The notes beneath the pieces were generated by a model. The model saw only the letters and a list, made by a program, of their open reading frames with translations, did no database searches and was not told where the DNA came from. 64,000 nucleotides of DNA. Source: Botryllus schlosseri (lineage: Eukaryota). Both the position numbers and the translations under genes were made by a program. This document shows, in pieces, positions 1-61,134 of the stretch (position 1 is the first letter of the stretch; each line of letters starts with the position of its first letter). The stretch lies in contig CM119371.1 in the NCBI GenBank assembly GCA_051294905.1, positions 41,728,001-41,792,000 on the forward strand. The letters run 5' to 3'.

Positions 1-148
1 TCTTTGAGAGTTTAATACGATCGGCTGAAGCTCCAGGACCATTTTCAATAACGACCACCCGCTTGAACACGTTGAAATAGGGAGAGTAGGATAATTGATT
101 CTGATCAAGCTAGTTTTTCAGGGGGTCAAATCTGGTCTAGCTTTCACG

Positions 149-296
149 TCTCTGAGAGTTTGATACGATCGGTTGAAGCTCCAGGACCATTTTCAATAAC
201 GACCGCCCGCTTGAACACGTTGAATTAGGGAGAGTAGGATAATTGATTCTGATCAAGCTAGTTTTTCAGGGGGTCAAATCTGGTCTAGCTTTCACG
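149..296. repeat. Representative type C monomer (148 bp), type B with a 45-bp internal deletion
   Basis: Reads ...GGTCTAGCTTTCACGTCTC..., whereas B reads GGTCTAGC-TTTCA-(40 bp)-TTTCA-CGTCTC (TTTCA at 1506-1510 and 1551-1555). Confidence 0.98.
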
Positions 297-489
297 TCTC
301 TGAGAGTTTGATACGATCGGTTGAAGCTCCAGGACCATTTTCAATAACGACCGCCCGCTTGAACACGTTGAAATAGGGTATCGGATTATTCATTCTGAAT
401 ATGCTACTTTTTTAGGTGGTATAATAAATGAACTTGATTTCAATTAAACTTTTGCGCCTCTTTAAGCGTCGCGTCGACGAAATCCCCCG

Positions 490-682
490 TCTTTGAGAGT
501 TTAATACGATCGGCTTTAGCTCCAGGACCATTTTCAATAACGACCGCCCGCTTGAACACGTTGAAATAGGGTATCGGATTATTCATTCTGAATATGCTAC
601 TTTTTTAGGGGGTATAATAAATGAACTTGATTTCAATTAAACTTTTGCGCCTCTTTAAGCGTCGCGTCGACGAAATCCCCCG
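490..682. repeat. Representative type A monomer (193 bp), diagnostic segment AAATAGGGTATCGGATTATTCATTCTGAATATGCTAC...GTATAATAAATGAACTTGA
   Basis: The unit recurs at 683, 876 and throughout. Two sub-variants usually alternate (AGGTGG followed by GGCTTTAGC, AGGGGG followed by GGCTGAAGC). Confidence 0.98.
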
Positions 683-1557
683 TCTTTGAGAGTTTAATAC
701 GATCGGCTGAAGCTCCAGGACCATTTTCAATAACGACCGCCCGCTTGAACACGTTGAAATAGGGTATCGGATTATTCATTCTGAATATGCTACTTTTTTA
801 GGTGGTATAATAAATGAACTTGATTTCAATTAAACTTTTGCGCCTCTTTAAGCGTCGCGTCGACGAAATCCCCCGTCTTTGAGAGTTTAATACGATCGGC
901 TTTAGCTCCAGGACCATTTTCAATAACGACCGCCCGCTTGAACACGTTGAAATAGGGTATCGGATTATTCATTCTGAATATGCTACTTTTTTAGGGGGTA
1001 TAATAAATGAACTTGATTTCAATTAAACTTTTGCGCCTCTTTAAGCGTCGCGTCGACGAAATCCCCCGTCTTTGAGAGTTTATAACGATCGGCTGAAGCT
1101 CCAGGACCATTTTCAATAACGACCGCCCGCTTGAACACGTTGAATTAGGGAGAGTAGGATAATTGATTCTGATCAAGCTAGTTTTTCAGGGGGTCAAATC
1201 TGGTCTAGCTTTCACGTCTCTGAGAGTTTGATACGATCGGTTGAAGCTCCAGGACCATTTTCAATAACGACCGCCCGCTTGAACACGTTGAATTAGGGAG
1301 AGTAGGATAATTGATTCTGATCAAGCTAGTTTTTCAGGGGGTCAAATCTGGTCTAGCTTTCACGTCTCTGAGAGTTTGATACGATCGGTTGAAGCTCCAG
1401 GACCATTTTCAATAACGACCGCCCGCTTGAACACGTTGAATTAGGGAGAGTAGGATAATTGATTCTGATCAAGCTAGTTTTTCAGGGGGTCAAATCTGGT
1501 CTAGCTTTCAATTGGACTTTTGCGCCTCTTTAAGCGTCGCGTCGAAGAAATTTCACG

Positions 1558-1750
1558 TCTCTGAGAGTTTGATACGATCGGCTGAAGCTCCAGGACCATT
1601 TTCAATAACGACCGCCCGCTTGAACACGTTGAATTAGGGAGAGTAGGATAATTGATTCTGATCAAGCTAGTTTTTCAGGGGGTCAAATCTGGTCTAGCTT
1701 TCAATTGGACTTTTGCGCCTCTTTAAGCGTCGCGTCGAAGAAATTTCACG
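1558..1750. repeat. Representative type B monomer (193 bp), diagnostic segment AATTAGGGAGAGTAGGATAATTGATTCTGATCAAGCTAG...CAAATCTGGTCTAGCTTTCAATTGGAC
   Basis: Aligns end to end with type A. It shares the 48-bp core and TTTTGCGCCTCTTTAAGCGTCGCGTCGA, and differs in the middle ~80 bp. Confidence 0.98.
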
Positions 1751-4700
1751 TCTCTGAGAGTTTGATACGATCGGCTGAAGCTCCAGGACCATTTTCAATA
1801 ACGACCGCCCGCTTGAACACGTTGAATTAGGGAGAGTAGGATAATTGATTCTGATCAAGCTAGTTTTTCAGGGGGTCAAATCTGGTCTAGCTTTCACGTC
1901 TCTGAGAGTTTGATACGATCGGTTGAAGCTCCAGGACCATTTTCAATAACGACCGCCCGCTTGAACACGTTGAAATAGGGTATCGGATTATTCATTCTGC
2001 ATATGCTACTTTTTTAGGTGGTATAATAAATGAACTTGATTTCAATTAAACTTTTGCGCCTCTTTAAGCGTCGCGTCGACGAAATCCCCCGTCTTTGAGA
2101 GTTTAATACGATCGGCTTTAGCTCCAGGACCATTTTCAATAACGACCGCCCGCTTGAACACGTTGAAATAGGGTATCGGATTATTCATTCTGAATATGCT
2201 ACTTTTTTAGGGGGTATAATAAATGAACTTGATTTCAATTAAACTTTTGCGCCTCTTTAAGCGTCGCGTCGACGAAATCCCCCGTCTTTGAGAGTTTAAT
2301 ACGATCGGCTGAAGCTCCAGGACCATTTTCAATAACGACCGCCCGCTTGAACACGTTGAAATAGGGTATCGGATTATTCATTCTGAATATGCTACTTTTT
2401 TAGGTGGTATAATAAATGAACTTGATTTCAATTAAACTTTTGCGCCTCTTTAAGCGTCGCGTCGACGAAATCCCCCGTCTTTGAGAGTTTAATACGATCG
2501 GCTTTAGCTCCAGGACCATTTTCAATAACGACCGCCCGCTTGAACACGTTGAAATAGGGTATCGGATTATTCATTCTGAATATGCTACTTTTTTAGGGGG
2601 TATAATAAATGAACTTGATTTCAATTAAACTTTTGCGCCTCTTTAAGCGTCGCGTCGACGAAATCCCCCGTCTTTGAGAGTTTATAACGATCGGCTGAAG
2701 CTCCAGGACCATTTTCAATAACGACCGCCCGCTTGAACACGTTGAATTAGGGAGAGTAGGATAATTGATTCTGATCAAGCTAGTTTTTCAGGGGGTCAAA
2801 TCTGGTCTAGCTTTCAATTGGACTTTTGCGCCTCTTTAAGCGTCGCGTCGAAGAAATTTCACGTCTCTGAGAGTTTGATACGATCGGCTGAAGCTCCAGG
2901 ACCATTTTCAATAACGACCGCCCGCTTGAACACGTTGAATTAGGGAGAGTAGGATAATTGATTCTGATCAAGCTAGTTTTTCAGGGGGTCAAATCTGGTC
3001 TAGCTTTCACGTCTCTGAGAGTTTGATACGATCGGTTGAAGCTCCAGGACCATTTTCAATAACGACCGCCCGCTTGAACACGTTGAATTAGGGAGAGTAG
3101 GATAATTGATTCTGATCAAGCTAGTTTTTCAGGGGGTCAAATCTGGTCTAGCTTTCACGTCTCTGAGAGTTTGATACGATCGGTTGAAGCTCCAGGACCA
3201 TTTTCAATAACGACCGCCCGCTTGAACACGTTGAAATAGGGTATCGGATTATTCATTCTGAATATGCTACTTTTTCAGGTGGTATAATAAATGAACTTGA
3301 TTTCAATTAAACTTTTGCGCCTCTTTAAGCGTCGCGTCGACGAAATCCCCCGTCTTTGAGAGTTTAATACGATCGGCTTTAGCTCCAGGACCATTTTCAA
3401 TAACGACCGCCCGCTTGAACACGTTGAAATAGGGTATCGGATTATTCATTCTGAATATGCTACTTTTTTAGGGGGTATAATAAATGAACTTGATTTCAAT
3501 TAAACTTTTGCGCCTCTTTAAGCGTCGCGTCGACGAAATCCCCCGTCTTTGAGAGTTTAATACGATCGGCTGAAGCTCCAGGACCATTTTCAATAACGAC
3601 CGCCCGCTTGAACACGTTGAAATAGGGTATCGGATTATTCATTCTGAATATGCTACTTTTTTAGGTGGTATAATAAATGAACTTGATTTCAATTAAACTT
3701 TTGCGCCTCTTTAAGCGTCGCGTCGACGAAATCCCCCGTCTTTGAGAGTTTAATACGATCGGCTTTAGCTCCAGGACCATTTTCAATAACGACCGCCCGC
3801 TTGAACACGTTGAAATAGGGTATCGGATTATTCATTCTGAATATGCTACTTTTTTAGGGGGTATAATAAATGAACTTGATTTCAATTAAACTTTTGCGCC
3901 TCTTTAAGCGTCGCGTCGACGAAATCCCCCGTCTTTGAGAGTTTAATACGATCGGCTGAAGCTCCAGGACCATTTTCAATAACGACCGCCCGCTTGAACA
4001 CGTTGAAATAGGGTATCGGATTATTCATTCTGAATATGCTACTTTTTTAGGTGGTATAATAAATGAACTTGATTTCAATTAAACTTTTGCGCCTCTTTAA
4101 GCGTCGCGTCGACGAAATCCCCCGTCTTTGAGAGTTTAATACGATCGGCTTTAGCTCCAGGACCATTTTCAATAACGACCGCCCGCTTGAACACGTTGAA
4201 ATAGGGTATCGGATTATTCATTCTGAATATGCTACTTTTTTAGGGGGTATAATAAATGAACTTGATTTCAATTAAACTTTTGCGCCTCTTTAAGCGTCGC
4301 GTCGACGAAATCCCCCGTCTTTGAGAGTTTATAACGATCGGCTGAAGCTCCAGGACCATTTTCAATAACGACCGCCCGCTTGAACACGTTGAATTAGGGA
4401 GAGTAGGATAATTGATTCTGATCAAGCTAGTTTTTCAGGGGGTCAAATCTGGTCTAGCTTTCAATTGGACTTTTGCGCCTCTTTAAGCGTCGCGTCGAAG
4501 AAATTTCACGTCTCTGAGAGTTTGATACGATCGGCTGAAGCTCCAGGACCATTTTCAATAACGACCGCCCGCTTGAACACGTTGAATTAGGGAGAGTAGG
4601 ATAATTGATTCTGATCAAGCTAGTTTTTCAGGGGGTCAAATCTGGTCTAGCTTTCACGTCTCTGAGAGTTTGATACGATCGGTTGAAGCTCCAGGACCAT

Positions 4701-7700
4701 TTTCAATAACGACCGCCCGCTTGAACACGTTGAATTAGGGAGAGTAGGATAATTGATTCTGATCAAGCTAGTTTTTCAGGGGGTCAAATCTGGTCTAGCT
4801 TTCACGTCTCTGAGAGTTTGATACGATCGGTTGAAGCTCCAGGACCATTTTCAATAACGACCGCCCGCTTGAACACGTTGAAATAGGGTATCGGATTATT
4901 CATTCTGAATATGCTACTTTTTCAGGTGGTATAATAAATGAACTTGATTTCAATTAAACTTTTGCGCCTCTTTAAGCGTCGCGTCGACGAAATCCCCCGT
5001 CTTTGAGAGTTTAATACGATCGGCTTTAGCTCCAGGACCATTTTCAATAACGACCGCCCGCTTGAACACGTTGAAATAGGGTATCGGATTATTCATTCTG
5101 AATATGCTACTTTTTTAGGGGGTATAATAAATGAACTTGATTTCAATTAAACTTTTGCGCCTCTTTAAGCGTCGCGTCGACGAAATCCCCCGTCTTTGAG
5201 AGTTTAATACGATCGGCTGAAGCTCCAGGACCATTTTCAATAACGACCGCCCGCTTGAACACGTTGAAATAGGGTATCGGATTATTCATTCTGAATATGC
5301 TACTTTTTTAGGGGGTATAATAAATGAACTTGATTTCAATTAAACTTTTGCGCCTCTTTAAGCGTCGCGTCGACGAAATCCCCCGTCTTTGAGAGTTTAA
5401 TACGATCGGCTGAAGCTCCAGGACCATTTTCAATAACGACCACCCGCTTGAACACGTTGAAATAGGGAGAGTAGGATAATTGATTCTGATCAAGCTAGTT
5501 TTTCAGGGGGTCAAATCTGGTCTAGCTTTCACGTCTCTGAGAGTTTGATACGATCGGTTGAAGCTCCAGGACCATTTTCAATAACGACCGCCCGCTTGAA
5601 CACGTTGAATTAGGGAGAGTAGGATAATTGATTCTGATCAAGCTAGTTTTTCAGGGGGTCAAATCTGGTCTAGCTTTCACGTCTCTGAGAGTTTGATACG
5701 ATCGGTTGAAGCTCCAGGACCATTTTCAATAACGACCGCCCGCTTGAACACGTTGAAATAGGGTATCGGATTATTCATTCTGAATATGCTACTTTTTTAG
5801 GTGGTATAATAAATGAACTTGATTTCAATTAAACTTTTGCGCCTCTTTAAGCGTCGCGTCGACGAAATCCCCCGTCTTTGAGAGTTTAATACGATCGGCT
5901 TTAGCTCCAGGACCATTTTCAATAACGACCGCCCGCTTGAACACGTTGAAATAGGGTATCGGATTATTCATTCTGAATATGCTACTTTTTTAGGGGGTAT
6001 AATAAATGAACTTGATTTCAATTAAACTTTTGCGCCTCTTTAAGCGTCGCGTCGACGAAATCCCCCGTCTTTGAGAGTTTAATACGATCGGCTGAAGCTC
6101 CAGGACCATTTTCAATAACGACCGCCCGCTTGAACACGTTGAAATAGGGTATCGGATTATTCATTCTGAATATGCTACTTTTTTAGGTGGTATAATAAAT
6201 GAACTTGATTTCAATTAAACTTTTGCGCCTCTTTAAGCGTCGCGTCGACGAAATCCCCCGTCTTTGAGAGTTTAATACGATCGGCTTTAGCTCCAGGACC
6301 ATTTTCAATAACGACCGCCCGCTTGAACACGTTGAAATAGGGTATCGGATTATTCATTCTGAATATGCTACTTTTTTAGGGGGTATAATAAATGAACTTG
6401 ATTTCAATTAAACTTTTGCGCCTCTTTAAGCGTCGCGTCGACGAAATCCCCCGTCTTTGAGAGTTTATAACGATCGGCTGAAGCTCCAGGACCATTTTCA
6501 ATAACGACCGCCCGCTTGAACACGTTGAATTAGGGAGAGTAGGATAATTGATTCTGATCAAGCTAGTTTTTCAGGGGGTCAAATCTGGTCTAGCTTTCAC
6601 GTCTCTGAGAGTTTGATACGATCGGTTGAAGCTCCAGGACCATTTTCAATAACGACCGCCCGCTTGAACACGTTGAATTAGGGAGAGTAGGATAATTGAT
6701 TCTGATCAAGCTAGTTTTTCAGGGGGTCAAATCTGGTCTAGCTTTCACGTCTCTGAGAGTTTGATACGATCGGTTGAAGCTCCAGGACCATTTTCAATAA
6801 CGACCGCCCGCTTGAACACGTTGAATTAGGGAGAGTAGGATAATTGATTCTGATCAAGCTAGTTTTTCAGGGGGTCAAATCTGGTCTAGCTTTCAATTGG
6901 ACTTTTGCGCCTCTTTAAGCGTCGCGTCGAAGAAATTTCACGTCTCTGAGAGTTTGATACGATCGGCTGAAGCTCCAGGACCATTTTCAATAACGACCGC
7001 CCGCTTGAACACGTTGAATTAGGGAGAGTAGGATAATTGATTCTGATCAAGCTAGTTTTTCAGGGGGTCAAATCTGGTCTAGCTTTCAATTGGACTTTTG
7101 CGCCTCTTTAAGCGTCGCGTCGAAGAAATTTCACGTCTCTGAGAGTTTGATACGATCGGCTGAAGCTCCAGGACCATTTTCAATAACGACCGCCCGCTTG
7201 AACACGTTGAATTAGGGAGAGTAGGATAATTGATTCTGATCAAGCTAGTTTTTCAGGGGGTCAAATCTGGTCTAGCTTTCACGTCTCTGAGAGTTTGATA
7301 CGATCGGTTGAAGCTCCAGGACCATTTTCAATAACGACCGCCCGCTTGAACACGTTGAAATAGGGTATCGGATTATTCATTCTGCATATGCTACTTTTTT
7401 AGGTGGTATAATAAATGAACTTGATTTCAATTAAACTTTTGCGCCTCTTTAAGCGTCGCGTCGACGAAATCCCCCGTCTTTGAGAGTTTAATACGATCGG
7501 CTTTAGCTCCAGGACCATTTTCAATAACGACCGCCCGCTTGAACACGTTGAAATAGGGTATCGGATTATTCATTCTGAATATGCTACTTTTTTAGGGGGT
7601 ATAATAAATGAACTTGATTTCAATTAAACTTTTGCGCCTCTTTAAGCGTCGCGTCGACGAAATCCCCCGTCTTTGAGAGTTTAATACGATCGGCTGAAGC

Positions 7701-10700
7701 TCCAGGACCATTTTCAATAACGACCGCCCGCTTGAACACGTTGAAATAGGGTATCGGATTATTCATTCTGAATATGCTACTTTTTTAGGTGGTATAATAA
7801 ATGAACTTGATTTCAATTAAACTTTTGCGCCTCTTTAAGCGTCGCGTCGACGAAATCCCCCGTCTTTGAGAGTTTAATACGATCGGCTTTAGCTCCAGGA
7901 CCATTTTCAATAACGACCGCCCGCTTGAACACGTTGAAATAGGGTATCGGATTATTCATTCTGAATATGCTACTTTTTTAGGGGGTATAATAAATGAACT
8001 TGATTTCAATTAAACTTTTGCGCCTCTTTAAGCGTCGCGTCGACGAAATCCCCCGTCTTTGAGAGTTTATAACGATCGGCTGAAGCTCCAGGACCATTTT
8101 CAATAACGACCGCCCGCTTGAACACGTTGAATTAGGGAGAGTAGGATAATTGATTCTGATCAAGCTAGTTTTTCAGGGGGTCAAATCTGGTCTAGCTTTC
8201 AATTGGACTTTTGCGCCTCTTTAAGCGTCGCGTCGAAGAAATTTCACGTCTCTGAGAGTTTGATACGATCGGCTGAAGCTCCAGGACCATTTTCAATAAC
8301 GACCGCCCGCTTGAACACGTTGAATTAGGGAGAGTAGGATAATTGATTCTGATCAAGCTAGTTTTTCAGGGGGTCAAATCTGGTCTAGCTTTCACGTCTC
8401 TGAGAGTTTGATACGATCGGTTGAAGCTCCAGGACCATTTTCAATAACGACCGCCCGCTTGAACACGTTGAATTAGGGAGAGTAGGATAATTGATTCTGA
8501 TCAAGCTAGTTTTTCAGGGGGTCAAATCTGGTCTAGCTTTCACGTCTCTGAGAGTTTGATACGATCGGTTGAAGCTCCAGGACCATTTTCAATAACGACC
8601 GCCCGCTTGAACACGTTGAAATAGGGTATCGGATTATTCATTCTGAATATGCTACTTTTTCAGGTGGTATAATAAATGAACTTGATTTCAATTAAACTTT
8701 TGCGCCTCTTTAAGCGTCGCGTCGACGAAATCCCCCGTCTTTGAGAGTTTAATACGATCGGCTTTAGCTCCAGGACCATTTTCAATAACGACCGCCCGCT
8801 TGAACACGTTGAAATAGGGTATCGGATTATTCATTCTGAATATGCTACTTTTTTAGGGGGTATAATAAATGAACTTGATTTCAATTAAACTTTTGCGCCT
8901 CTTTAAGCGTCGCGTCGACGAAATCCCCCGTCTTTGAGAGTTTAATACGATCGGCTGAAGCTCCAGGACCATTTTCAATAACGACCGCCCGCTTGAACAC
9001 GTTGAAATAGGGTATCGGATTATTCATTCTGAATATGCTACTTTTTTAGGTGGTATAATAAATGAACTTGATTTCAATTAAACTTTTGCGCCTCTTTAAG
9101 CGTCGCGTCGACGAAATCCCCCGTCTTTGAGAGTTTAATACGATCGGCTTTAGCTCCAGGACCATTTTCAATAACGACCGCCCGCTTGAACACGTTGAAA
9201 TAGGGTATCGGATTATTCATTCTGAATATGCTACTTTTTTAGGGGGTATAATAAATGAACTTGATTTCAATTAAACTTTTGCGCCTCTTTAAGCGTCGCG
9301 TCGACGAAATCCCCCGTCTTTGAGAGTTTAATACGATCGGCTGAAGCTCCAGGACCATTTTCAATAACGACCGCCCGCTTGAACACGTTGAAATAGGGTA
9401 TCGGATTATTCATTCTGAATATGCTACTTTTTTAGGTGGTATAATAAATGAACTTGATTTCAATTAAACTTTTGCGCCTCTTTAAGCGTCGCGTCGACGA
9501 AATCCCCCGTCTTTGAGAGTTTAATACGATCGGCTTTAGCTCCAGGACCATTTTCAATAACGACCGCCCGCTTGAACACGTTGAAATAGGGTATCGGATT
9601 ATTCATTCTGAATATGCTACTTTTTTAGGGGGTATAATAAATGAACTTGATTTCAATTAAACTTTTGCGCCTCTTTAAGCGTCGCGTCGACGAAATCCCC
9701 CGTCTTTGAGAGTTTATAACGATCGGCTGAAGCTCCAGGACCATTTTCAATAACGACCGCCCGCTTGAACACGTTGAATTAGGGAGAGTAGGATAATTGA
9801 TTCTGATCAAGCTAGTTTTTCAGGGGGTCAAATCTGGTCTAGCTTTCAATTGGACTTTTGCGCCTCTTTAAGCGTCGCGTCGAAGAAATTTCACGTCTCT
9901 GAGAGTTTGATACGATCGGCTGAAGCTCCAGGACCATTTTCAATAACGACCGCCCGCTTGAACACGTTGAATTAGGGAGAGTAGGATAATTGATTCTGAT
10001 CAAGCTAGTTTTTCAGGGGGTCAAATCTGGTCTAGCTTTCACGTCTCTGAGAGTTTGATACGATCGGTTGAAGCTCCAGGACCATTTTCAATAACGACCG
10101 CCCGCTTGAACACGTTGAATTAGGGAGAGTAGGATAATTGATTCTGATCAAGCTAGTTTTTCAGGGGGTCAAATCTGGTCTAGCTTTCACGTCTCTGAGA
10201 GTTTGATACGATCGGTTGAAGCTCCAGGACCATTTTCAATAACGACCGCCCGCTTGAACACGTTGAAATAGGGTATCGGATTATTCATTCTGAATATGCT
10301 ACTTTTTTAGGTGGTATAATAAATGAACTTGATTTCAATTAAACTTTTGCGCCTCTTTAAGCGTCGCGTCGACGAAATCCCCCGTCTTTGAGAGTTTAAT
10401 ACGATCGGCTTTAGCTCCAGGACCATTTTCAATAACGACCGCCCGCTTGAACACGTTGAAATAGGGTATCGGATTATTCATTCTGAATATGCTACTTTTT
10501 TAGGGGGTATAATAAATGAACTTGATTTCAATTAAACTTTTGCGCCTCTTTAAGCGTCGCGTCGACGAAATCCCCCGTCTTTGAGAGTTTAATACGATCG
10601 GCTGAAGCTCCAGGACCATTTTCAATAACGACCGCCCGCTTGAACACGTTGAAATAGGGTATCGGATTATTCATTCTGCATATGCTACTTTTTTAGGTGG

Positions 10701-11558
10701 TATAATAAATGAACTTGATTTCAATTAAACTTTTGCGCCTCTTTAAGCGTCGCGTCGACGAAATCCCCCGTCTTTGAGAGTTTAATACGATCGGCTTTAG
10801 CTCCAGGACCATTTTCAATAACGACCGCCCGCTTGAACACGTTGAAATAGGGTATCGGATTATTCATTCTGAATATGCTACTTTTTTAGGGGGTATAATA
10901 AATGAACTTGATTTCAATTAAACTTTTGCGCCTCTTTAAGCGTCGCGTCGACGAAATCCCCCGTCTTTGAGAGTTTAATACGATCGGCTGAAGCTCCAGG
11001 ACCATTTTCAATAACGACCGCCCGCTTGAACACGTTGAAATAGGGTATCGGATTATTCATTCTGAATATGCTACTTTTTTAGGTGGTATAATAAATGAAC
11101 TTGATTTCAATTAAACTTTTGCGCCTCTTTAAGCGTCGCGTCGACGAAATCCCCCGTCTTTGAGAGTTTAATACGATCGGCTTTAGCTCCAGGACCATTT
11201 TCAATAACGACCGCCCGCTTGAACACGTTGAAATAGGGTATCGGATTATTCATTCTGAATATGCTACTTTTTTAGGGGGTATAATAAATGAACTTGATTT
11301 CAATTAAACTTTTGCGCCTCTTTAAGCGTCGCGTCGACGAAATCCCCCGTCTTTGAGAGTTTATAACGATCGGCTGAAGCTCCAGGACCATTTTCAATAA
11401 CGACCGCCCGCTTGAACACGTTGAATTAGGGAGAGTAGGATAATTGATTCTGATCAAGCTAGTTTTTCAGGGGGTCAAATCTGGTCTAGCTTTCAATTGG
11501 ACTTTTGCGCCTCTTTAAGCGTCGCGTCGAAGAAATTTCACGTCTCTGAGAGTTTGAT

Positions 11559-14500
11559 ACGATCGGCTGAAGCTCCAGGACCATTTTCAATAACGACCGC
11601 CCGCTTGAACACGTTGAATTAGGGAGAGTAGGATAATTGATTCTGATCAAGCTAGTTTTTCAGGGGGTCAAATCTGGTCTAGCTTTCACGTCTCTGAGAG
11701 TTTGATACGATCGGTTGAAGCTCCAGGACCATTTTCAATAACGACCGCCCGCTTGAACACGTTGAATTAGGGAGAGTAGGATAATTGATTCTGATCAAGC
11801 TAGTTTTTCAGGGGGTCAAATCTGGTCTAGCTTTCACGTCTCTGAGAGTTTGATACGATCGGTTGAAGCTCCAGGACCATTTTCAATAACGACCGCCCGC
11901 TTGAACACGTTGAAATAGGGTATCGGATTATTCATTCTGAATATGCTACTTTTTCAGGTGGTATAATAAATGAACTTGATTTCAATTAAACTTTTGCGCC
12001 TCTTTAAGCGTCGCGTCGACGAAATCCCCCGTCTTTGAGAGTTTAATACGATCGGCTTTAGCTCCAGGACCATTTTCAATAACGACCGCCCGCTTGAACA
12101 CGTTGAAATAGGGTATCGGATTATTCATTCTGAATATGCTACTTTTTTAGGGGGTATAATAAATGAACTTGATTTCAATTAAACTTTTGCGCCTCTTTAA
12201 GCGTCGCGTCGACGAAATCCCCCGTCTTTGAGAGTTTAATACGATCGGCTGAAGCTCCAGGACCATTTTCAATAACGACCGCCCGCTTGAACACGTTGAA
12301 ATAGGGTATCGGATTATTCATTCTGAATATGCTACTTTTTTAGGTGGTATAATAAATGAACTTGATTTCAATTAAACTTTTGCGCCTCTTTAAGCGTCGC
12401 GTCGACGAAATCCCCCGTCTTTGAGAGTTTAATACGATCGGCTTTAGCTCCAGGACCATTTTCAATAACGACCGCCCGCTTGAACACGTTGAATTAGGGA
12501 GAGTAGGATAATTGATTCTGATCAAGCTAGTTTTTCAGGGGGTCAAATCTGGTCTAGCTTTCACGTCTCTGAGAGTTTGATACGATCGGTTGAAGCTCCA
12601 GGACCATTTTCAATAACGACCGCCCGCTTGAACACGTTGAAATAGGGTATCGGATTATTCATTCTGAATATGCTACTTTTTCAGGTGGTATAATAAATGA
12701 ACTTGATTTCAATTAAACTTTTGCGCCTCTTTAAGCGTCGCGTCGACGAAATCCCCCGTCTTTGAGAGTTTAATACGATCGGCTTTAGCTCCAGGACCAT
12801 TTTCAATAACGACCGCCCGCTTGAACACGTTGAAATAGGGTATCGGATTATTCATTCTGAATATGCTACTTTTTTAGGGGGTATAATAAATGAACTTGAT
12901 TTCAATTAAACTTTTGCGCCTCTTTAAGCGTCGCGTCGACGAAATCCCCCGTCTTTGAGAGTTTAATACGATCGGCTGAAGCTCCAGGACCATTTTCAAT
13001 AACGACCGCCCGCTTGAACACGTTGAAATAGGGTATCGGATTATTCATTCTGAATATGCTACTTTTTTAGGGGGTATAATAAATGAACTTGATTTCAATT
13101 AAACTTTTGCGCCTCTTTAAGCGTCGCGTCGACGAAATCCCCCGTCTTTGAGAGTTTAATACGATCGGCTGAAGCTCCAGGACCATTTTCAATAACGACC
13201 ACCCGCTTGAACACGTTGAAATAGGGAGAGTAGGATAATTGATTCTGATCAAGCTAGTTTTTCAGGGGGTCAAATCTGGTCTAGCTTTCACGTCTCTGAG
13301 AGTTTGATACGATCGGTTGAAGCTCCAGGACCATTTTCAATAACGACCGCCCGCTTGAACACGTTGAATTAGGGAGAGTAGGATAATTGATTCTGATCAA
13401 GCTAGTTTTTCAGGGGGTCAAATCTGGTCTAGCTTTCACGTCTCTGAGAGTTTGATACGATCGGTTGAAGCTCCAGGACCATTTTCAATAACGACCGCCC
13501 GCTTGAACACGTTGAAATAGGGTATCGGATTATTCATTCTGAATATGCTACTTTTTTAGGTGGTATAATAAATGAACTTGATTTCAATTAAACTTTTGCG
13601 CCTCTTTAAGCGTCGCGTCGACGAAATCCCCCGTCTTTGAGAGTTTAATACGATCGGCTTTAGCTCCAGGACCATTTTCAATAACGACCGCCCGCTTGAA
13701 CACGTTGAAATAGGGTATCGGATTATTCATTCTGAATATGCTACTTTTTTAGGGGGTATAATAAATGAACTTGATTTCAATTAAACTTTTGCGCCTCTTT
13801 AAGCGTCGCGTCGACGAAATCCCCCGTCTTTGAGAGTTTAATACGATCGGCTGAAGCTCCAGGACCATTTTCAATAACGACCGCCCGCTTGAACACGTTG
13901 AAATAGGGTATCGGATTATTCATTCTGAATATGCTACTTTTTTAGGTGGTATAATAAATGAACTTGATTTCAATTAAACTTTTGCGCCTCTTTAAGCGTC
14001 GCGTCGACGAAATCCCCCGTCTTTGAGAGTTTAATACGATCGGCTTTAGCTCCAGGACCATTTTCAATAACGACCGCCCGCTTGAACACGTTGAAATAGG
14101 GTATCGGATTATTCATTCTGAATATGCTACTTTTTTAGGGGGTATAATAAATGAACTTGATTTCAATTAAACTTTTGCGCCTCTTTAAGCGTCGCGTCGA
14201 CGAAATCCCCCGTCTTTGAGAGTTTAATACGATCGGCTTTAGCTCCAGGACCATTTTCAATAACGACCGCCCGCTTGAACACGTTGAAATAGGGTATCGG
14301 ATTATTCATTCTGAATATGCTACTTTTTTAGGGGGTATAATAAATGAACTTGATTTCAATTAAACTTTTGCGCCTCTTTAAGCGTCGCGTCGACGAAATC
14401 CCCCGTCTTTGAGAGTTTATAACGATCGGCTGAAGCTCCAGGACCATTTTCAATAACGACCGCCCGCTTGAACACGTTGAATTAGGGAGAGTAGGATAAT

Positions 14501-44500: not shown

Positions 44501-47500
44501 ACCATTTTCAATAACGACCGCCCGCTTGAACACGTTGAAATAGGGTATCGGATTATTCATTCTGAATATGCTACTTTTTTAGGGGGTATAATAAATGAAC
44601 TTGATTTCAATTAAACTTTTGCGCCTCTTTAAGCGTCGCGTCGACGAAATCCCCCGTCTTTGAGAGTTTAATACGATCGGCTGAAGCTCCAGGACCATTT
44701 TCAATAACGACCGCCCGCTTGAACACGTTGAAATAGGGTATCGGATTATTCATTCTGAATATGCTACTTTTTTAGGTGGTATAATAAATGAACTTGATTT
44801 CAATTAAACTTTTGCGCCTCTTTAAGCGTCGCGTCGACGAAATCCCCCGTCTTTGAGAGTTTAATACGATCGGCTTTAGCTCCAGGACCATTTTCAATAA
44901 CGACCGCCCGCTTGAACACGTTGAAATAGGGTATCGGATTATTCATTCTGAATATGCTACTTTTTTAGGGGGTATAATAAATGAACTTGATTTCAATTAA
45001 ACTTTTGCGCCTCTTTAAGCGTCGCGTCGACGAAATCCCCCGTCTTTGAGAGTTTAATACGATCGGCTGAAGCTCCAGGACCATTTTCAATAACGACCAC
45101 CCGCTTGAACACGTTGAAATAGGGAGAGTAGGATAATTGATTCTGATCAAGCTAGTTTTTCAGGGGGTCAAATCTGGTCTAGCTTTCACGTCTCTGAGAG
45201 TTTGATACGATCGGTTGAAGCTCCAGGACCATTTTCAATAACGACCGCCCGCTTGAACACGTTGAATTAGGGAGAGTAGGATAATTGATTCTGATCAAGC
45301 TAGTTTTTCAGGGGGTCAAATCTGGTCTAGCTTTCACGTCTCTGAGAGTTTGATACGATCGGTTGAAGCTCCAGGACCATTTTCAATAACGACCGCCCGC
45401 TTGAACACGTTGAAATAGGGTATCGGATTATTCATTCTGAATATGCTACTTTTTTAGGTGGTATAATAAATGAACTTGATTTCAATTAAACTTTTGCGCC
45501 TCTTTAAGCGTCGCGTCGACGAAATCCCCCGTCTTTGAGAGTTTAATACGATCGGCTTTAGCTCCAGGACCATTTTCAATAACGACCGCCCGCTTGAACA
45601 CGTTGAAATAGGGTATCGGATTATTCATTCTGAATATGCTACTTTTTTAGGGGGTATAATAAATGAACTTGATTTCAATTAAACTTTTGCGCCTCTTTAA
45701 GCGTCGCGTCGACGAAATCCCCCGTCTTTGAGAGTTTAATACGATCGGCTGAAGCTCCAGGACCATTTTCAATAACGACCGCCCGCTTGAACACGTTGAA
45801 ATAGGGTATCGGATTATTCATTCTGAATATGCTACTTTTTTAGGTGGTATAATAAATGAACTTGATTTCAATTAAACTTTTGCGCCTCTTTAAGCGTCGC
45901 GTCGACGAAATCCCCCGTCTTTGAGAGTTTAATACGATCGGCTTTAGCTCCAGGACCATTTTCAATAACGACCGCCCGCTTGAACACGTTGAAATAGGGT
46001 ATCGGATTATTCATTCTGAATATGCTACTTTTTTAGGGGGTATAATAAATGAACTTGATTTCAATTAAACTTTTGCGCCTCTTTAAGCGTCGCGTCGACG
46101 AAATCCCCCGTCTTTGAGAGTTTAATACGATCGGCTTTAGCTCCAGGACCATTTTCAATAACGACCGCCCGCTTGAACACGTTGAAATAGGGTATCGGAT
46201 TATTCATTCTGAATATGCTACTTTTTTAGGGGGTATAATAAATGAACTTGATTTCAATTAAACTTTTGCGCCTCTTTAAGCGTCGCGTCGACGAAATCCC
46301 CCGTCTTTGAGAGTTTATAACGATCGGCTGAAGCTCCAGGACCATTTTCAATAACGACCGCCCGCTTGAACACGTTGAATTAGGGAGAGTAGGATAATTG
46401 ATTCTGATCAAGCTAGTTTTTCAGGGGGTCAAATCTGGTCTAGCTTTCACGTCTCTGAGAGTTTGATACGATCGGTTGAAGCTCCAGGACCATTTTCAAT
46501 AACGACCGCCCGCTTGAACACGTTGAAATAGGGTATCGGATTATTCATTCTGAATATGCTACTTTTTCAGGTGGTATAATAAATGAACTTGATTTCAATT
46601 AAACTTTTGCGCCTCTTTAAGCGTCGCGTCGACGAAATCCCCCGTCTTTGAGAGTTTAATACGATCGGCTGAAGCTCCAGGACCATTTTCAATAACGACC
46701 GCCCGCTTGAACACGTTGAAATAGGGTATCGGATTATTCATTCTGAATATGCTACTTTTTTAGGGGGTATAATAAATGAACTTGATTTCAATTAAACTTT
46801 TGCGCCTCTTTAAGCGTCGCGTCGACGAAATCCCCCGTCTTTGAGAGTTTAATACGATCGGCTGAAGCTCCAGGACCATTTTCAATAACGACCGCCCGCT
46901 TGAACACGTTGAAATAGGGTATCGGATTATTCATTCTGAATATGCTACTTTTTTAGGTGGTATAATAAATGAACTTGATTTCAATTAAACTTTTGCGCCT
47001 CTTTAAGCGTCGCGTCGACGAAATCCCCCGTCTTTGAGAGTTTAATACGATCGGCTTTAGCTCCAGGACCATTTTCAATAACGACCGCCCGCTTGAACAC
47101 GTTGAAATAGGGTATCGGATTATTCATTCTGAATATGCTACTTTTTTAGGGGGTATAATAAATGAACTTGATTTCAATTAAACTTTTGCGCCTCTTTAAG
47201 CGTCGCGTCGACGAAATCCCCCGTCTTTGAGAGTTTATAACGATCGGCTGAAGCTCCAGGACCATTTTCAATAACGACCGCCCGCTTGAACACGTTGAAT
47301 TAGGGAGAGTAGGATAATTGATTCTGATCAAGCTAGTTTTTCAGGGGGTCAAATCTGGTCTAGCTTTCAATTGGACTTTTGCGCCTCTTTAAGCGTCGCG
47401 TCGAAGAAATTTCACGTCTCTGAGAGTTTGATACGATCGGCTGAAGCTCCAGGACCATTTTCAATAACGACCGCCCGCTTGAACACGTTGAATTAGGGAG

Positions 47501-50162
47501 AGTAGGATAATTGATTCTGATCAAGCTAGTTTTTCAGGGGGTCAAATCTGGTCTAGCTTTCAATTGGACTTTTGCGCCTCTTTAAGCGTCGCGTCGAAGA
47601 AATTTCACGTCTCTGAGAGTTTGATACGATCGGCTGAAGCTCCAGGACCATTTTCAATAACGACCGCCCGCTTGAACACGTTGAATTAGGGAGAGTAGGA
47701 TAATTGATTCTGATCAAGCTAGTTTTTCAGGGGGTCAAATCTGGTCTAGCTTTCACGTCTCTGAGAGTTTGATACGATCGGTTGAAGCTCCAGGACCATT
47801 TTCAATAACGACCGCCCGCTTGAACACGTTGAATTAGGGAGAGTAGGATAATTGATTCTGATCAAGCTAGTTTTTCAGGGGGTCAAATCTGGTCTAGCTT
47901 TCACGTCTCTGAGAGTTTGATACGATCGGTTGAAGCTCCAGGACCATTTTCAATAACGACCGCCCGCTTGAACACGTTGAAATAGGGTATCGGATTATTC
48001 ATTCTGAATATGCTACTTTTTCAGGTGGTATAATAAATGAACTTGATTTCAATTAAACTTTTGCGCCTCTTTAAGCGTCGCGTCGACGAAATCCCCCGTC
48101 TTTGAGAGTTTAATACGATCGGCTTTAGCTCCAGGACCATTTTCAATAACGACCGCCCGCTTGAACACGTTGAAATAGGGTATCGGATTATTCATTCTGA
48201 ATATGCTACTTTTTTAGGGGGTATAATAAATGAACTTGATTTCAATTAAACTTTTGCGCCTCTTTAAGCGTCGCGTCGACGAAATCCCCCGTCTTTGAGA
48301 GTTTAATACGATCGGCTGAAGCTCCAGGACCATTTTCAATAACGACCGCCCGCTTGAACACGTTGAAATAGGGTATCGGATTATTCATTCTGAATATGCT
48401 ACTTTTTTAGGTGGTATAATAAATGAACTTGATTTCAATTAAACTTTTGCGCCTCTTTAAGCGTCGCGTCGACGAAATCCCCCGTCTTTGAGAGTTTAAT
48501 ACGATCGGCTTTAGCTCCAGGACCATTTTCAATAACGACCGCCCGCTTGAACACGTTGAAATAGGGTATCGGATTATTCATTCTGAATATGCTACTTTTT
48601 TAGGGGGTATAATAAATGAACTTGATTTCAATTAAACTTTTGCGCCTCTTTAAGCGTCGCGTCGACGAAATCCCCCGTCTTTGAGAGTTTAATACGATCG
48701 GCTGAAGCTCCAGGACCATTTTCAATAACGACCGCCCGCTTGAACACGTTGAAATAGGGTATCGGATTATTCATTCTGAATATGCTACTTTTTTAGGGGG
48801 TATAATAAATGAACTTGATTTCAATTAAACTTTTGCGCCTCTTTAAGCGTCGCGTCGACGAAATCCCCCGTCTTTGAGAGTTTAATACGATCGGCTGAAG
48901 CTCCAGGACCATTTTCAATAACGACCACCCGCTTGAACACGTTGAAATAGGGAGAGTAGGATAATTGATTCTGATCAAGCTAGTTTTTCAGGGGGTCAAA
49001 TCTGGTCTAGCTTTCACGTCTCTGAGAGTTTGATACGATCGGTTTAAGCTCCAGGACCATTTTCAATAACGACCGCCCGCTTGAACACGTTGAATTAGGG
49101 AGAGTAGGATAATTGATTCTGATCAAGCTAGTTTTTCAGGGGGTCAAATCTGGTCTAGCTTTCACGTCTCTGAGAGTTTGATACGATCGGTTGAAGCTCC
49201 AGGACCATTTTCAATAACGACCGCCCGCTTGAACACGTTGAAATAGGGTATCGGATTATTCATTCTGAATATGCTACTTTTTTAGGTGGTATAATAAATG
49301 AACTTGATTTCAATTAAACTTTTGCGCCTCTTTAAGCGTCGCGTCGACGAAATCCCCCGTCTTTGAGAGTTTAATACGATCGGCTTTAGCTCCAGGACCA
49401 TTTTCAATAACGACCGCCCGCTTGAACACGTTGAAATAGGGTATCGGATTATTCATTCTGAATATGCTACTTTTTTAGGGGGTATAATAAATGAACTTGA
49501 TTTCAATTAAACTTTTGCGCCTCTTTAAGCGTCGCGTCGACGAAATCCCCCGTCTTTGAGAGTTTAATACGATCGGCTGAAGCTCCAGGACCATTTTCAA
49601 TAACGACCGCCCGCTTGAACACGTTGAAATAGGGTATCGGATTATTCATTCTGAATATGCTACTTTTTTAGGTGGTATAATAAATGAACTTGATTTCAAT
49701 TAAACTTTTGCGCCTCTTTAAGCGTCGCGTCGACGAAATCCCCCGTCTTTGAGAGTTTAATACGATCGGCTTTAGCTCCAGGACCATTTTCAATAACGAC
49801 CGCCCGCTTGAACACGTTGAAATAGGGTATCGGATTATTCATTCTGAATATGCTACTTTTTTAGGGGGTATAATAAATGAACTTGATTTCAATTAAACTT
49901 TTGCGCCTCTTTAAGCGTCGCATCGACGAAATCCCCCGTCTTTGAGAGTTTATAACGATCGGCTGAAGCTCCAGGACCATTTTCAATAACGACCGCCCGC
50001 TTGAACACGTTGAATTAGGGAGAGTAGGATAATTGATTCTGATCAAGCTAGTTTTTCAGGGGGTCAAATCTGGTCTAGCTTTCACGTCTCTGAGAGTTTG
50101 ATACGATCGGTTGAAGCTCCAGGACCATTTTCAATAACGACCGCCCGCTTGAACACGTTGAA
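11559..50162. repeat. 19,198-bp tandem duplication (106 monomers: 78x193 + 28x148), each copy made of three ~6.35-6.5-kb higher-order units
   Basis: All 18 ORF markers from 12340 to 30663 recur at +19198 (31538 to 49861). The CGCATCG variant occurs at 18024, 24374, 30724, 37222, 43572 and 49922 (spacings 6350, 6350, 6498, 6350, 6350). Boundaries come from the nearest mismatches found by eye; not every base was compared. Confidence 0.9.
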
Positions 50163-57400: not shown

Positions 57401-57588
57401 TCCAGGACCATTTTCAATAACGACCGCCCGCTTGAACACGTTGAAATAGGGTATCGGATTATTCATTCTGAATATGCTACTTTTTCAGGTGGTATAATAA
57501 ATGAACTTGATTTCAATTAAACTTTTGCGCCTCTTTAAGCGTCGCGTCGACGAAATCCCCCGTCTTTGAGAGTTTAATACGATCGGCT
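51469..57588. repeat. 3011-bp tandem duplication (17 monomers: 11x193 + 6x148)
   Basis: Markers 51463/54474, 53065/56076 and 54133/57144 are offset by 3011. Flanking mismatches are at 51468/54479 and 54578/57589. Confidence 0.88.
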
Positions 57589-60500
57589 TTAGCTCCAGGA
57601 CCATTTTCAATAACGACCGCCCGCTTGAACACGTTGAAATAGGGTATCGGATTATTCATTCTGAATATGCTACTTTTTTAGGGGGTATAATAAATGAACT
57701 TGATTTCAATTAAACTTTTGCGCCTCTTTAAGCGTCGCGTCGACGAAATCCCCCGTCTTTGAGAGTTTATAACGATCGGCTGAAGCTCCAGGACCATTTT
57801 CAATAACGACCGCCCGCTTGAACACGTTGAATTAGGGAGAGTAGGATAATTGATTCTGATCAAGCTAGTTTTTCAGGGGGTCAAATCTGGTCTAGCTTTC
57901 ACGTCTCTGAGAGTTTGATACGATCGGTTGAAGCTCCAGGACCATTTTCAATAACGACCGCCCGCTTGAACACGTTGAATTAGGGAGAGTAGGATAATTG
58001 ATTCTGATCAAGCTAGTTTTTCAGGGGGTCAAATCTGGTCTAGCTTTCACGTCTCTGAGAGTTTGATACGATCGGTTGAAGCTCCAGGACCATTTTCAAT
58101 AACGACCGCCCGCTTGAACACGTTGAAATAGGGTATCGGATTATTCATTCTGAATATGCTACTTTTTCAGGTGGTATAATAAATGAACTTGATTTCAATT
58201 AAACTTTTGCGCCTCTTTAAGCGTCGCGTCGACGAAATCCCCCGTCTTTGAGAGTTTAATACGATCGGCTTTAGCTCCAGGACCATTTTCAATAACGACC
58301 GCCCGCTTGAACACGTTGAAATAGGGTATCGGATTATTCATTCTGAATATGCTACTTTTTTAGGGGGTATAATAAATGAACTTGATTTCAATTAAACTTT
58401 TGCGCCTCTTTAAGCGTCGCGTCGACGAAATCCCCCGTCTTTGAGAGTTTAATACGATCGGCTGAAGCTCCAGGACCATTTTCAATAACGACCGCCCGCT
58501 TGAACACGTTGAAATAGGGTATCGGATTATTCATTCTGAATATGCTACTTTTTTAGGTGGTATAATAAATGAACTTGATTTCAATTAAACTTTTGCGCCT
58601 CTTTAAGCGTCGCGTCGACGAAATCCCCCGTCTTTGAGAGTTTAATACGATCGGCTTTAGCTCCAGGACCATTTTCAATAACGACCGCCCGCTTGAACAC
58701 GTTGAAATAGGGTATCGGATTATTCATTCTGAATATGCTACTTTTTTAGGGGGTATAATAAATGAACTTGATTTCAATTAAACTTTTGCGCCTCTTTAAG
58801 CGTCGCGTCGACGAAATCCCCCGTCTTTGAGAGTTTAATACGATCGGCTGAAGCTCCAGGACCATTTTCAATAACGACCACCCGCTTGAACACGTTGAAA
58901 TAGGGAGAGTAGGATAATTGATTCTGATCAAGCTAGTTTTTCAGGGGGTCAAATCTGGTCTAGCTTTCACGTCTCTGAGAGTTTGATACGATCGGTTGAA
59001 GCTCCAGGACCATTTTCAATAACGACCGCCCGCTTGAACACGTTGAATTAGGGAGAGTAGGATAATTGATTCTGATCAAGCTAGTTTTTCAGGGGGTCAA
59101 ATCTGGTCTAGCTTTCACGTCTCTGAGAGTTTGATACGATCGGTTGAAGCTCCAGGACCATTTTCAATAACGACCGCCCGCTTGAACACGTTGAAATAGG
59201 GTATCGGATTATTCATTCTGAATATGCTACTTTTTTAGGGGGTATAATAAATGAACTTGATTTCAATTAAACTTTTGCGCCTCTTTAAGCGTCGCGTCGA
59301 CGAAATCCCCCGTCTTTGAGAGTTTAATACGATCGGCTTTAGCTCCAGGACCATTTTCAATAACGACCGCCCGCTTGAACACGTTGAAATAGGGTATCGG
59401 ATTATTCATTCTGAATATGCTACTTTTTTAGGGGGTATAATAAATGAACTTGATTTCAATTAAACTTTTGCGCCTCTTTAAGCGTCGCGTCGACGAAATC
59501 CCCCGTCTTTGAGAGTTTAATACGATCGGCTGAAGCTCCAGGACCATTTTCAATAACGACCGCCCGCTTGAACACGTTGAAATAGGGTATCGGATTATTC
59601 ATTCTGAATATGCTACTTTTTTAGGTGGTATAATAAATGAACTTGATTTCAATTAAACTTTTGCGCCTCTTTAAGCGTCGCGTCGACGAAATCCCCCGTC
59701 TTTGAGAGTTTAATACGATCGGCTTTAGCTCCAGGACCATTTTCAATAACGACCGCCCGCTTGAACACGTTGAAATAGGGTATCGGATTATTCATTCTGA
59801 ATATGCTACTTTTTTAGGGGGTATAATAAATGAACTTGATTTCAATTAAACTTTTGCGCCTCTTTAAGCGTCGCGTCGACGAAATCCCCCGTCTTTGAGA
59901 GTTTATAACGATCGGCTGAAGCTCCAGGACCATTTTCAATAACGACCGCCCGCTTGAACACGTTGAATTAGGGAGAGTAGGATAATTGATTCTGATCAAG
60001 CTAGTTTTTCAGGGGGTCAAATCTGGTCTAGCTTTCAATTGGACTTTTGCGCCTCTTTAAGCGTCGCGTCGAAGAAATTTCACGTCTCTGAGAGTTTGAT
60101 ACGATCGGCTGAAGCTCCAGGACCATTTTCAATAACGACCGCCCGCTTGAACACGTTGAATTAGGGAGAGTAGGATAATTGATTCTGATCAAGCTAGTTT
60201 TTCAGGGGGTCAAATCTGGTCTAGCTTTCAATTGGACTTTTGCGCCTCTTTAAGCGTCGCGTCGAAGAAATTTCACGTCTCTGAGAGTTTGATACGATCG
60301 GCTGAAGCTCCAGGACCATTTTCAATAACGACCGCCCGCTTGAACACGTTGAATTAGGGAGAGTAGGATAATTGATTCTGATCAAGCTAGTTTTTCAGGG
60401 GGTCAAATCTGGTCTAGCTTTCACGTCTCTGAGAGTTTGATACGATCGGTTGAAGCTCCAGGACCATTTTCAATAACGACCGCCCGCTTGAACACGTTGA

Positions 60501-61134
60501 AATAGGGTATCGGATTATTCATTCTGAATATGCTACTTTTTTAGGTGGTATAATAAATGAACTTGATTTCAATTAAACTTTTGCGCCTCTTTAAGCGTCG
60601 CGTCGACGAAATCCCCCGTCTTTGAGAGTTTAATACGATCGGCTTTAGCTCCAGGACCATTTTCAATAACGACCGCCCGCTTGAACACGTTGAAATAGGG
60701 TATCGGATTATTCATTCTGAATATGCTACTTTTTTAGGGGGTATAATAAATGAACTTGATTTCAATTAAACTTTTGCGCCTCTTTAAGCGTCGCGTCGAC
60801 GAAATCCCCCGTCTTTGAGAGTTTAATACGATCGGCTGAAGCTCCAGGACCATTTTCAATAACGACCGCCCGCTTGAACACGTTGAAATAGGGTATCGGA
60901 TTATTCATTCTGAATATGCTACTTTTTTAGGTGGTATAATAAATGAACTTGATTTCAATTAAACTTTTGCGCCTCTTTAAGCGTCGCGTCGACGAAATCC
61001 CCCGTCTTTGAGAGTTTAATACGATCGGCTTTAGCTCCAGGACCATTTTCAATAACGACCGCCCGCTTGAACACGTTGAAATAGGGTATCGGATTATTCA
61101 TTCTGAATATGCTACTTTTTTAGGGGGTATAATA

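Follow-up and report, generated by a model that had tools for sequence, protein, structure and literature searches.

The window analysed here, 64,000 bp of Botryllus schlosseri DNA, is occupied up to position 61134 by a satellite array of two monomer lengths, in which the 148-bp unit (C) is one 45-bp microhomology deletion of a 193-bp subfamily (B), later amplified. Divergence of two 193-bp subfamilies (A and B), this single deletion and block duplication very probably account for the array. We lean towards reading it as a young domain of length variants, recently expanded at the LINE-cut edge of an array of an abundant 193-bp family, centromeric or pericentromeric in location. That 148 bp matches the size of a nucleosome is most likely coincidental.

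Monomer classes and extent of the array

The array and representative units were placed as follows.

1..61134, plus strand: satellite array of head-to-tail A (193 bp), B (193 bp) and C (148 bp) monomers, left edge open
59697..59889, plus strand: A monomer, example of the commonest type, A1 (93 of 337)
60083..60275, plus strand: B monomer, example
60276..60423, plus strand: C monomer, example, 148 bp, equal to the first 148 bp of B
60113..60160, plus strand: shared block, monomer positions 31-78

A 12-bp anchor was counted 339 times on the plus strand and never on the minus strand; its spacings were 193 bp (244 of 338) or 148 bp (94 of 338), with no other length. The 337 full monomers (219 A, 25 B and 93 C) comprised only 18 distinct sequences, with mean pairwise identity within classes of 98.5% for A, 98.8% for B and 97.9% for C. 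None of the 680 distinct 31-mers and none of the 883 distinct 51-mers in 1-61134 was single-copy, indicating very recent copying. The first-pass annotation had described two lengths only, uniform orientation and extreme homogeneity over 61 kb, and these counts bear it out on all three. The array continues past the left end of the window, and the 61 kb are its visible part, not its full size; on the right, a (GA)n tail adjoins the last letter of the array, 61134, which is position 132 of an A monomer.

Subfamilies A and B differed at 30 of 195 aligned columns, and a 2-bp insertion and a 2-bp deletion cancel, leaving both at 193 bp. The shared block was invariant across all 337 monomers except at position 59, where 18 C copies differed. 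It forms the core of a 62-bp run identical in the commonest A and B units, which was equalled in 9 of 100,000 permutations. The head of each monomer tracked the type of the preceding tail, so that cutting the units inside the shared block reduced the 18 types to 12 among 338 units.

The array is thus satellite DNA in the usual sense, long, non-coding, head to tail and in one orientation. A coding repeat was rejected since the longest stop-free frame reached only 65 aa. A tandem RNA-gene array (5S, snRNA, SL or tRNA) was likewise rejected: segment 59100-61134, which holds all three classes, had no Rfam match, the one match over 59100-64000 was a chance hit within the LINE described below (E 2.2), and ARAGORN found no tRNA gene in the whole window.

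Origin of the 148-bp monomer

C equals B without the following segment.

60231..60275, plus strand: 45-bp B segment absent from C, with a 5-bp direct repeat, TTTCA, at 60226-60230 and 60271-60275

The TTTCA copies lie at B positions 144-148 and 189-193, and one of them is kept in C, the anatomy of a microhomology-mediated deletion. The C junctions were identical in 94 of 94 cases. The second TTTCA copy was absent from A, and the deletion was found in none of the 219 A tails. Once the family had split into its diverged subfamilies of equal length, one B copy would have lost the 45 bp between the repeats, by microhomology-mediated repair or template switching. Deletions of B between microhomologies of 5 bp or longer could give 28 product lengths, of which 2 fall within 147 +/- 3 bp and 12 within 100-200 bp. 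C, with 93 copies, now outnumbers its parent B, with 25.

Higher-order structure

The order of monomers repeated at offsets of 17, 30, 34-36, 70-72 and 106 monomers, and the longest repeats were exact.

11559..30964, plus strand: exact 19,406-bp duplication, first copy, 106 monomers in three higher-order units of about 6.3 kb
30757..50162, plus strand: second copy of this duplication, offset 19,198 bp
1..10307, plus strand: second higher-order domain, exact 4,922-bp repeat at an offset of 5,385 bp (30 monomers)

A further exact repeat of 6,957 bp was found at an offset of 12,700 bp. Lempel-Ziv parsing of the monomer order gave 41 phrases, where 20 shuffles gave 123 on average and never fewer than 118, and the nesting of higher-order repeats noticed in the first reading of the sequence is confirmed by these figures. 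Exact block repeats spanned 3.0-19.4 kb, blocks being more alike between copies than within them, as in higher-order repeats (HORs). Minor variants sat at fixed places in the HORs (A6 and C5, for example, six times each), and the units differed through gain or loss of single monomers. C occurred as 25 singles and 34 pairs, never three in a row. A/B/C blocks may have been duplicated out of register to build the nested units, whose sizes are 0.5-1.6 kb, about 6.3 kb and 19.2 kb. Break-induced replication or unequal exchange is the probable route, and the exchanges would lie in the shared block.

The LINE at the array edge

61134..61151, minus strand: LINE 3' tail, (CT)9, preceded by AATAAA on the sense strand and adjoining the truncated A monomer
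61417..63999, minus strand: LINE ORF2, 860 aa without a stop, 5' end open, RVT_1 E 2.3e-34

The cut N-terminus of ORF2 gave only E 0.16 for Exo_endo_phos; among the matches listed, the endonuclease domain PF03372 was annotated in most of 120 homologues. An ORF2 with reverse transcriptase and endonuclease, followed by a 3' tail, identifies an APE-RT non-LTR LINE, which from its anatomy we take to belong to the L2/CR1 group. It shares with that group the endonuclease-plus-reverse-transcriptase ORF2 and the microsatellite 3' tail after AATAAA, but its 5' end and any target-site duplication lie beyond the window, and its ORF2 is seen only in part. The junction fits insertion of a young LINE within an A monomer. 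Descent of the satellite from this LINE was rejected, as the two shared only an 11-bp chance match.

The family in other sequencing runs

Abundance in other runs was gauged by summed contig depth, which is not a copy number. Contigs drop rare variants and so show presence, not absence. Runs X1-X4 possibly come from the source sample and are not independent; runs with shares of 0.41-0.53 and an 'urban metagenome' entry were left out of the evidence. None of the 24 runs listed was labelled as ChIP or CUT&Tag, with library types recorded for few of them. In run X5 (organism A, study P2; another study under the same species label, library type unrecorded), the A body reached a summed depth of about 100,000-128,000 at single places, and window-like B letters reached 550-1,240, about 1% of A. 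Across the runs compared, B/C-type sequence contributes little to the family; in the window (B+C)/A is 118/219, or 54%. Family depth, again as an abundance gauge and not a copy number, was about 1e5 in X5, far above that in X7 (about 4e3, or 4,000) and X13 (about 5e2, or 470). At the B-diagnostic place 59974, the whole X7 depth (49.7 of 49.7) lacked the 2 bp, and the X13 contigs listed no depth there. The C deletion joint was found in contigs of none of four runs, weak evidence given the loss of rare variants from contigs.

Exact A contigs were recovered from organism B (89 bp, 0 differences) and organism C (104 bp, 0 differences), and a diverged organism B contig held the 193-bp register across one junction (113 of 113 bp). 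All four runs also showed sequences related to the B body that were diverged and differently flanked (loose ends at 59977 and 60060). No RNA run was among the runs listed as containing the family. In the single RNA library searched, X24, 33 of 12,895,792 records matched (about 6% of the run read), of which 31 were partial and four crossed an A-A junction; no abundant transcripts were seen in it, and DNA carry-over may explain the matches. Matches to a 21-bp core pattern (four metagenome loci and one genome locus) were discarded as chance, all five aligning over 22-23 bp only. Comparison with other scanned windows gave no look-alikes and one chance match to a phage island (3 of 145 words).

Nucleosome size and monomer length

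A nucleosome core wraps about 147 bp, and typical repeat lengths are about 160-200 bp. From this the first-pass annotation had proposed that the A/B/C order could encode nucleosome spacing or the placement of CENP-A versus H3. Such a code, with both lengths under selection, we consider very improbable. The arithmetic is suggestive (148 = 147 + 1; 193 = 147 + 46), and two observations hint at some constraint on length: the cancelling indels of A and B, and the lack of any CCC run among 337 monomers. The 193-bp register of the diverged organism B contig, the rarity in permutations of the 62-bp identical run and the rise of C above its parent could also be read in favour of a code. However, exchange between A and B accounts for the conserved block just as well, monomer order is accounted for by duplication, C has a single mutational origin, two of the 28 product lengths open to B fall near 147 bp, and B/C-type sequence is scarce beside A in X5. 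A 10-11-bp periodicity of flexible dinucleotides, the one signal covered by this crude comparison, was absent from A1, A2, B2 and C1, its power being reached by 37-80% of 1,000 shuffles. Between two consecutive 148-bp units the linker would be 1 bp, and such a repeat is shorter than any nucleosome repeat length reported in vivo, the minimum being 154 bp, in the available part of PMC12961432; the same part describes arrays of about 130 bp formed on telomeric DNA in vitro. Less DNA can suffice for a CENP-A nucleosome, as with the 105 bp seen with CCAN in yeast (PMC7475651, available part), so 148 bp could hold a CENP-A nucleosome with a short linker. In its fullest form the proposal would describe a sequence-defined ascidian centromere under length selection, with 193 bp held by cancelling indels, the 62-bp block serving as a protein-binding box, the 148-bp variant driven up as a fit to the open-ended CENP-A nucleosome and never set three in a row, and the order writing the spacing; we give this little credence. 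The proposed code was thus not upheld, and the caveat entered beside it, that the length match may be coincidental, was well placed. C would more simply be a passenger, its length carrying no code and nucleosomes adjusting over it.

Centromeric and other explanations

The label 'centromere-like satellite' given earlier remains a fair one. It fits the single strand, the homogeneity, the nested HORs, the LINE edge and the abundance of A in X5; neither a CENP-B box nor a dyad excess was found. The CENP-B box is 17 bp long with nine essential bases. The best match in A1, B2 and C4 was six of nine, a score of at least six being reached by 298 of 300 shuffles of A1. Each monomer had 3-4 dyads, where the shuffles averaged 2.5-4.1 and the count was reached by 22-68% of 200 of them, a dyad excess being a tendency of centromeric satellites and not universal among them. 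Folding z-scores of the monomers were +1.5, +1.3 and -0.1. A hairpin with compensatory changes between A (93-107) and B (97-110) was dropped, because the centres were offset and the counts were those of chance.

The same origin could also have produced a 193-bp family lying outside centromeres, as a heterochromatic satellite of interstitial or subtelomeric position, perhaps akin to repeats carried within transposons, with another family marking the centromeres; we hold this a real but less than even possibility. It would suit the summed depths of X7 and X13, which lie far below that of X5, the diverged B-body relatives with other flanks and the lack of a centromere-specific motif in the monomers. 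Against it stand the very high A depth in X5 and the exact A sequence under two other species labels, together with homogeneity and nested HORs that match described satellite centromeres, though they are not exclusive to them. According to the available text of PMC8997354, nested HORs and microhomology events are described traits of such centromeres. LINEs make up 1.3% of centromeric arrays, and 128 of 263 families of candidate centromeric satellites fall into the commonest length class, 100-200 bp, in the portion available of bioRxiv 10.64898/2026.09.17.752431. By analogy with mouse minor-satellite length variants, which are located at junctions with less CENP-A (PMC12583555, available part), CENP-A, if on the family, would more likely sit on pure-A arrays than on the mixed A/B/C block. 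Human CENP-A can occupy an admixed HOR layer (PMC8997354, available part), so the active core can be of mixed composition. That the uniformity or size of the array is largely an assembly product, whether from consensus polishing or because a shorter array was over-expanded, appears extremely improbable. The exact 19,406-bp tandem copy and the lack of single-copy 31-mers would suit such a product, and in mouse the density of variants was not the same under different assembly methods (PMC12583555, available part). Polishing, however, would not create recurring minor variants or single-monomer gains and losses, and A, with B-like sequence at low depth, was found in another study's run. For the 19.2-kb step alone an artefact is unlikely but carries appreciably more weight.

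Relation to known satellites and significance

Mouse minor satellite carries a 112-mer and a 112-64 dimer beside its 120-mer (PMC12583555, available part) and resembles the present family in that a homogeneous family has one dominant monomer and, beside it, shorter variants with blocks and HORs of their own. Here, in contrast, there is no CENP-B box and the variants are mixed with A monomer by monomer in nested HORs; CENP-A is reduced on the mouse variants, while the present array, known from sequence alone, is likened to them by structure. Human alpha-satellite HORs, as described in the available part of PMC8997354, share A/B monomer classes, nested near-identical units and a structure of the break-induced-replication type. 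They differ in that monomers within a unit are 50-70% alike, against 85-100% here; the present monomers are 193 and not 171 bp long, lack a CENP-B box and form irregular rather than regimented HORs. In the available portion of the Darwin Tree of Life atlas (bioRxiv 10.64898/2026.09.17.752431), 27 of 165 satellite species are ditypic. Examples such as icScaQuad.92/109 and idCluTigr.118/193 also show two mixed lengths in the 100-200-bp range, heterogeneous HORs and LINE interruptions, but here the short form is traceable to one subfamily deletion; the comparison, including that with the fly 193-mer, is by description. The main text of the atlas, as available, gave no match to tunicate terms.

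CentroMiner yielded candidate centromeric monomers for B. schlosseri itself (PMC12448946, available part), likewise an ascidian tandem-monomer region proposed as centromeric, there from sequence plus Hi-C. Its figure legends and five supplementary files give neither monomer length nor sequence, and the likeness is by description only. For Oikopleura, the authors found no high-copy centromeric repeat (PMC8008620, available part). Our search on 193-bp satellites and ascidian or tunicate centromeres, with subscription journals, Repbase and bioRxiv supplements outside its scope, found no description of the family, and no experimentally validated ascidian centromeric repeat was found in the literature searched. 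Two-length satellites with nested repeats are already known and the short unit is of ordinary origin, and the finding is of modest importance in that respect. The abundant 193-bp family occurs under three species labels and offers a concrete probe for CENP-A mapping and FISH. B and C form a clean natural experiment, one 45-bp deletion in otherwise identical sequence, and footprinting of single molecules over the two would show whether monomer length sets nucleosome spacing.

Results

A 12-bp anchor occurred 339 times on the + strand of the window and never on the - strand; the 338 spacings measured 193 bp (244) or 148 bp (94), with no other length. Of the 337 full monomers, 219 were of class A and 25 of class B, both 193 bp long, and 93 were of the 148-bp class C. 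They comprised 18 distinct sequences; cutting instead within a block common to all classes gave 338 units with 12 sequences. Within-class identity was 98-99%. The first-pass annotation had described two monomer lengths only over 61 kb, uniform orientation and extreme homogeneity, and these counts bear it out. No single-copy 31-mers (0/680) or 51-mers (0/883) were found across the 61 kb. Given an assumed mutation rate of 3e-9 to 1e-8 per base per generation, their absence would bound the last copying round of the array at roughly 5,000-16,000 generations, to which assembly polishing could contribute. GC content was 41-43% over the whole window. The CpG observed/expected ratio was 1.48 in the array versus 0.72 in the flanking LINE (61160-64000), thus showing no sign of CpG decay in the array.

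The nested higher-order repeats claimed earlier were also recovered. Runs of one to six A monomers alternated with B and C runs in blocks of 0.5-1.6 kb, which combined into larger units, each 6.2-6.5 kb long and made of 34-36 monomers. Three such units recurred exactly, as a copy of 19,406 bp offset by 19,198 bp (11,559-30,964 = 30,757-50,162), and the first 10 kb of the array had a separate period of 30 monomers (5,385 bp). The monomer order was described by 41 Lempel-Ziv phrases compared with at least 118 in 20 of 20 shuffles, showing that the order is a record of block copying. Positions 11559-50162 held two adjoining 19.2-kb copies with zero differences between them, reflecting either a very recent duplication or assembly over-expansion.

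Over its whole length, C was identical to positions 1-148 of B. The 45 bp absent from C sit between two TTTCA copies of B, one of which was retained. When B-type bodies were followed past the left breakpoint (n = 119), 94 shared one identical junction and 25 ran on as full B. All 219 A bodies were undeleted, and the second TTTCA was missing from A. Because C equals the first 148 bp of B and the junction is identical in 94 of 94 cases, the second length is most simply explained by one deletion that was then amplified, rather than by an independently tuned monomer. C (93) outnumbered its parent B (25). Among rare array variants, only one (position 179, 6 copies) was a CpG transition in the region of the deleted segment.

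A and B were both 193 bp through one 2-bp insertion and one 2-bp deletion. Between their 30 differences lay uninterrupted stretches of identity, 62 and 30 bp long, matched by 9 and 1 of 100,000 permutations, respectively. Monomer positions 31-78 (e.g., 60113-60160) formed a near-invariant block common to A, B and C; the 62-bp run refers to the commonest A versus B units. Exchange in this zone is one possible explanation for the block, a protein-binding box another. A and B units switched within the identical run, so that exchange can explain the run with no function needed.

No CENP-B box was found (best match 6 of 9 essential bases, equalled by 298 of 300 shuffles). The 10-11-bp dinucleotide periodicity was also absent, the observed power being reached by 37-80% of 1,000 shuffles, and the monomers had no excess of dyads and no unusual folding. 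C occurred as 25 singles and 34 pairs; CCC never occurred, a lack that carries no valid P value because monomer copies are not independent.

Features at the right edge of the array were as follows.
61134: array end; last A monomer cut at its own position 132, against (GA)n, at an AT-rich spot
Other strand of (GA)n: LINE tail, (CT)9 following AATAAA
61417-63999, - strand: LINE ORF2, 860 aa, stop-free, with a reverse transcriptase domain

The 860-aa ORF shared 99% identity with a 545-aa protein record (P0001) and, over its length, 37% with an endonuclease-RT protein. The element at 61134-64000 is a young LINE with its 5' end beyond the window; its anatomy suggests L2/CR1.

Among the runs listed, 20 in 10 studies matched the satellite, mostly from organism A, with one run each from organisms B and C (species labels unrelated to monomer letters). 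Four of 24 listed runs were compared against 59,760-60,130 (A body, one B and the following head), with likely source runs left out; contigs show presence, not absence, and summed contig depth is not copy number. In X5 (organism A, from a study other than those of the best-matching runs), summed contig depth was 100,000-128,000 at four A-body places and 550-1,240 for window-like B-body letters, about 1% of A; (B+C)/A in the window was 118/219. Contigs matching A letter for letter came from organism B, 89 bp long at a depth of 1,571, and from organism C, 104 bp long at a depth of 330. At the B-diagnostic place 59974, two letters were missing in 49.7/49.7 of X7 depth; no depth was listed for X13. 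An X5 tail variant, A>G at monomer position 183 (60072-60088), had a depth of about 19,000 and was missing from the window; it marks another large sub-family. The 45-bp skip was listed in none of the four runs, whose contigs reveal presence only. We read A as the probable bulk form of the family and the A/B/C mix as a local or individual domain.

Against a simple reading, X7 depth was 700-2,100 deeper within the B body. Loose ends at 59977 and 60060 place these contigs in a related repeat, with a continuation unlike the window. A 208-bp X7 contig, another variant of the family, had 12 differences in 98 bp and kept the 193 register. A stretch of about 84 bp in the B body (59977-60060) was common to a related repeat with other flanks in X5, X7, X13 and X24, and X7 and X13 contigs came back to the same stretch. 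That return suggests a tandem relative whose period, judged by record lengths, would be about 160 bp at most. The X24 RNA reads came mostly from such relatives.

Discussion

The first-pass annotation had suggested that 148 bp fits a linkerless nucleosome core and that the A/B/C order could encode nucleosome spacing or CENP-A versus H3 placement, while allowing that the length match might be coincidental. The proposed code is not supported: C most simply derives from a single B deletion, the order records block copying, and 10-11-bp periodicity was absent. Direct repeats of at least 5 bp in B allow 28 product lengths, 2 within 147 ± 3 and 12 within 100-200 bp, and a post-hoc fit to the nucleosome core size is not rare; in the available text of a centromeric satellite survey, 128 of 263 candidate families measure 100-200 bp (bioRxiv 10.64898/2026.09.17.752431). 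That the lengths encode nucleosome spacing is therefore very unlikely, although the compensating A/B indels, the long identical runs and the lack of CCC would fit a length constraint, and CENP-A particles can hold less DNA, as noted in part of one source (PMC7475651). In a CC pair, two canonical cores would be only 1 bp apart, whereas the shortest in-vivo repeat length in the accessible text of PMC12961432 is 154 bp; in vitro, the same text describes telomeric DNA forming ~130-bp arrays.

We suggest instead that an abundant 193-bp family built arrays, homogenised via out-of-register copying. For nested higher-order repeats, the proposed models are break-induced replication and microhomology repair (PMC8997354, in part). 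A single B copy would then have lost 45 bp, the mixed A/B/C block would have expanded with C as a passenger, and the LINE would have inserted into the array.

The literature searched gave neither a description of the 193-bp satellite, which may be named in unsearched papers, repeat databases or the survey's tables, nor a validated centromeric repeat from any ascidian. In one ascidian assembly paper, the supplementary legends speak of candidate centromeric monomers but give neither their length nor their sequence, and five of its supplementary files gave no match (PMC12448946); the Oikopleura assembly paper, in its accessible part, found no high-copy centromeric repeat (PMC8008620). The main rival reading, a non-centromeric satellite, is somewhat improbable, and we lean towards a (peri)centromeric 193-bp family. 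In its workings the array resembles known length-variant satellite arrays but differs from CENP-B-box satellites in lacking the box. In the text available to us, mouse minor satellite length variants lie at centromere-pericentromere junctions with less CENP-A than the main monomer, and they are the closest working model for the A/B/C block (PMC12583555).
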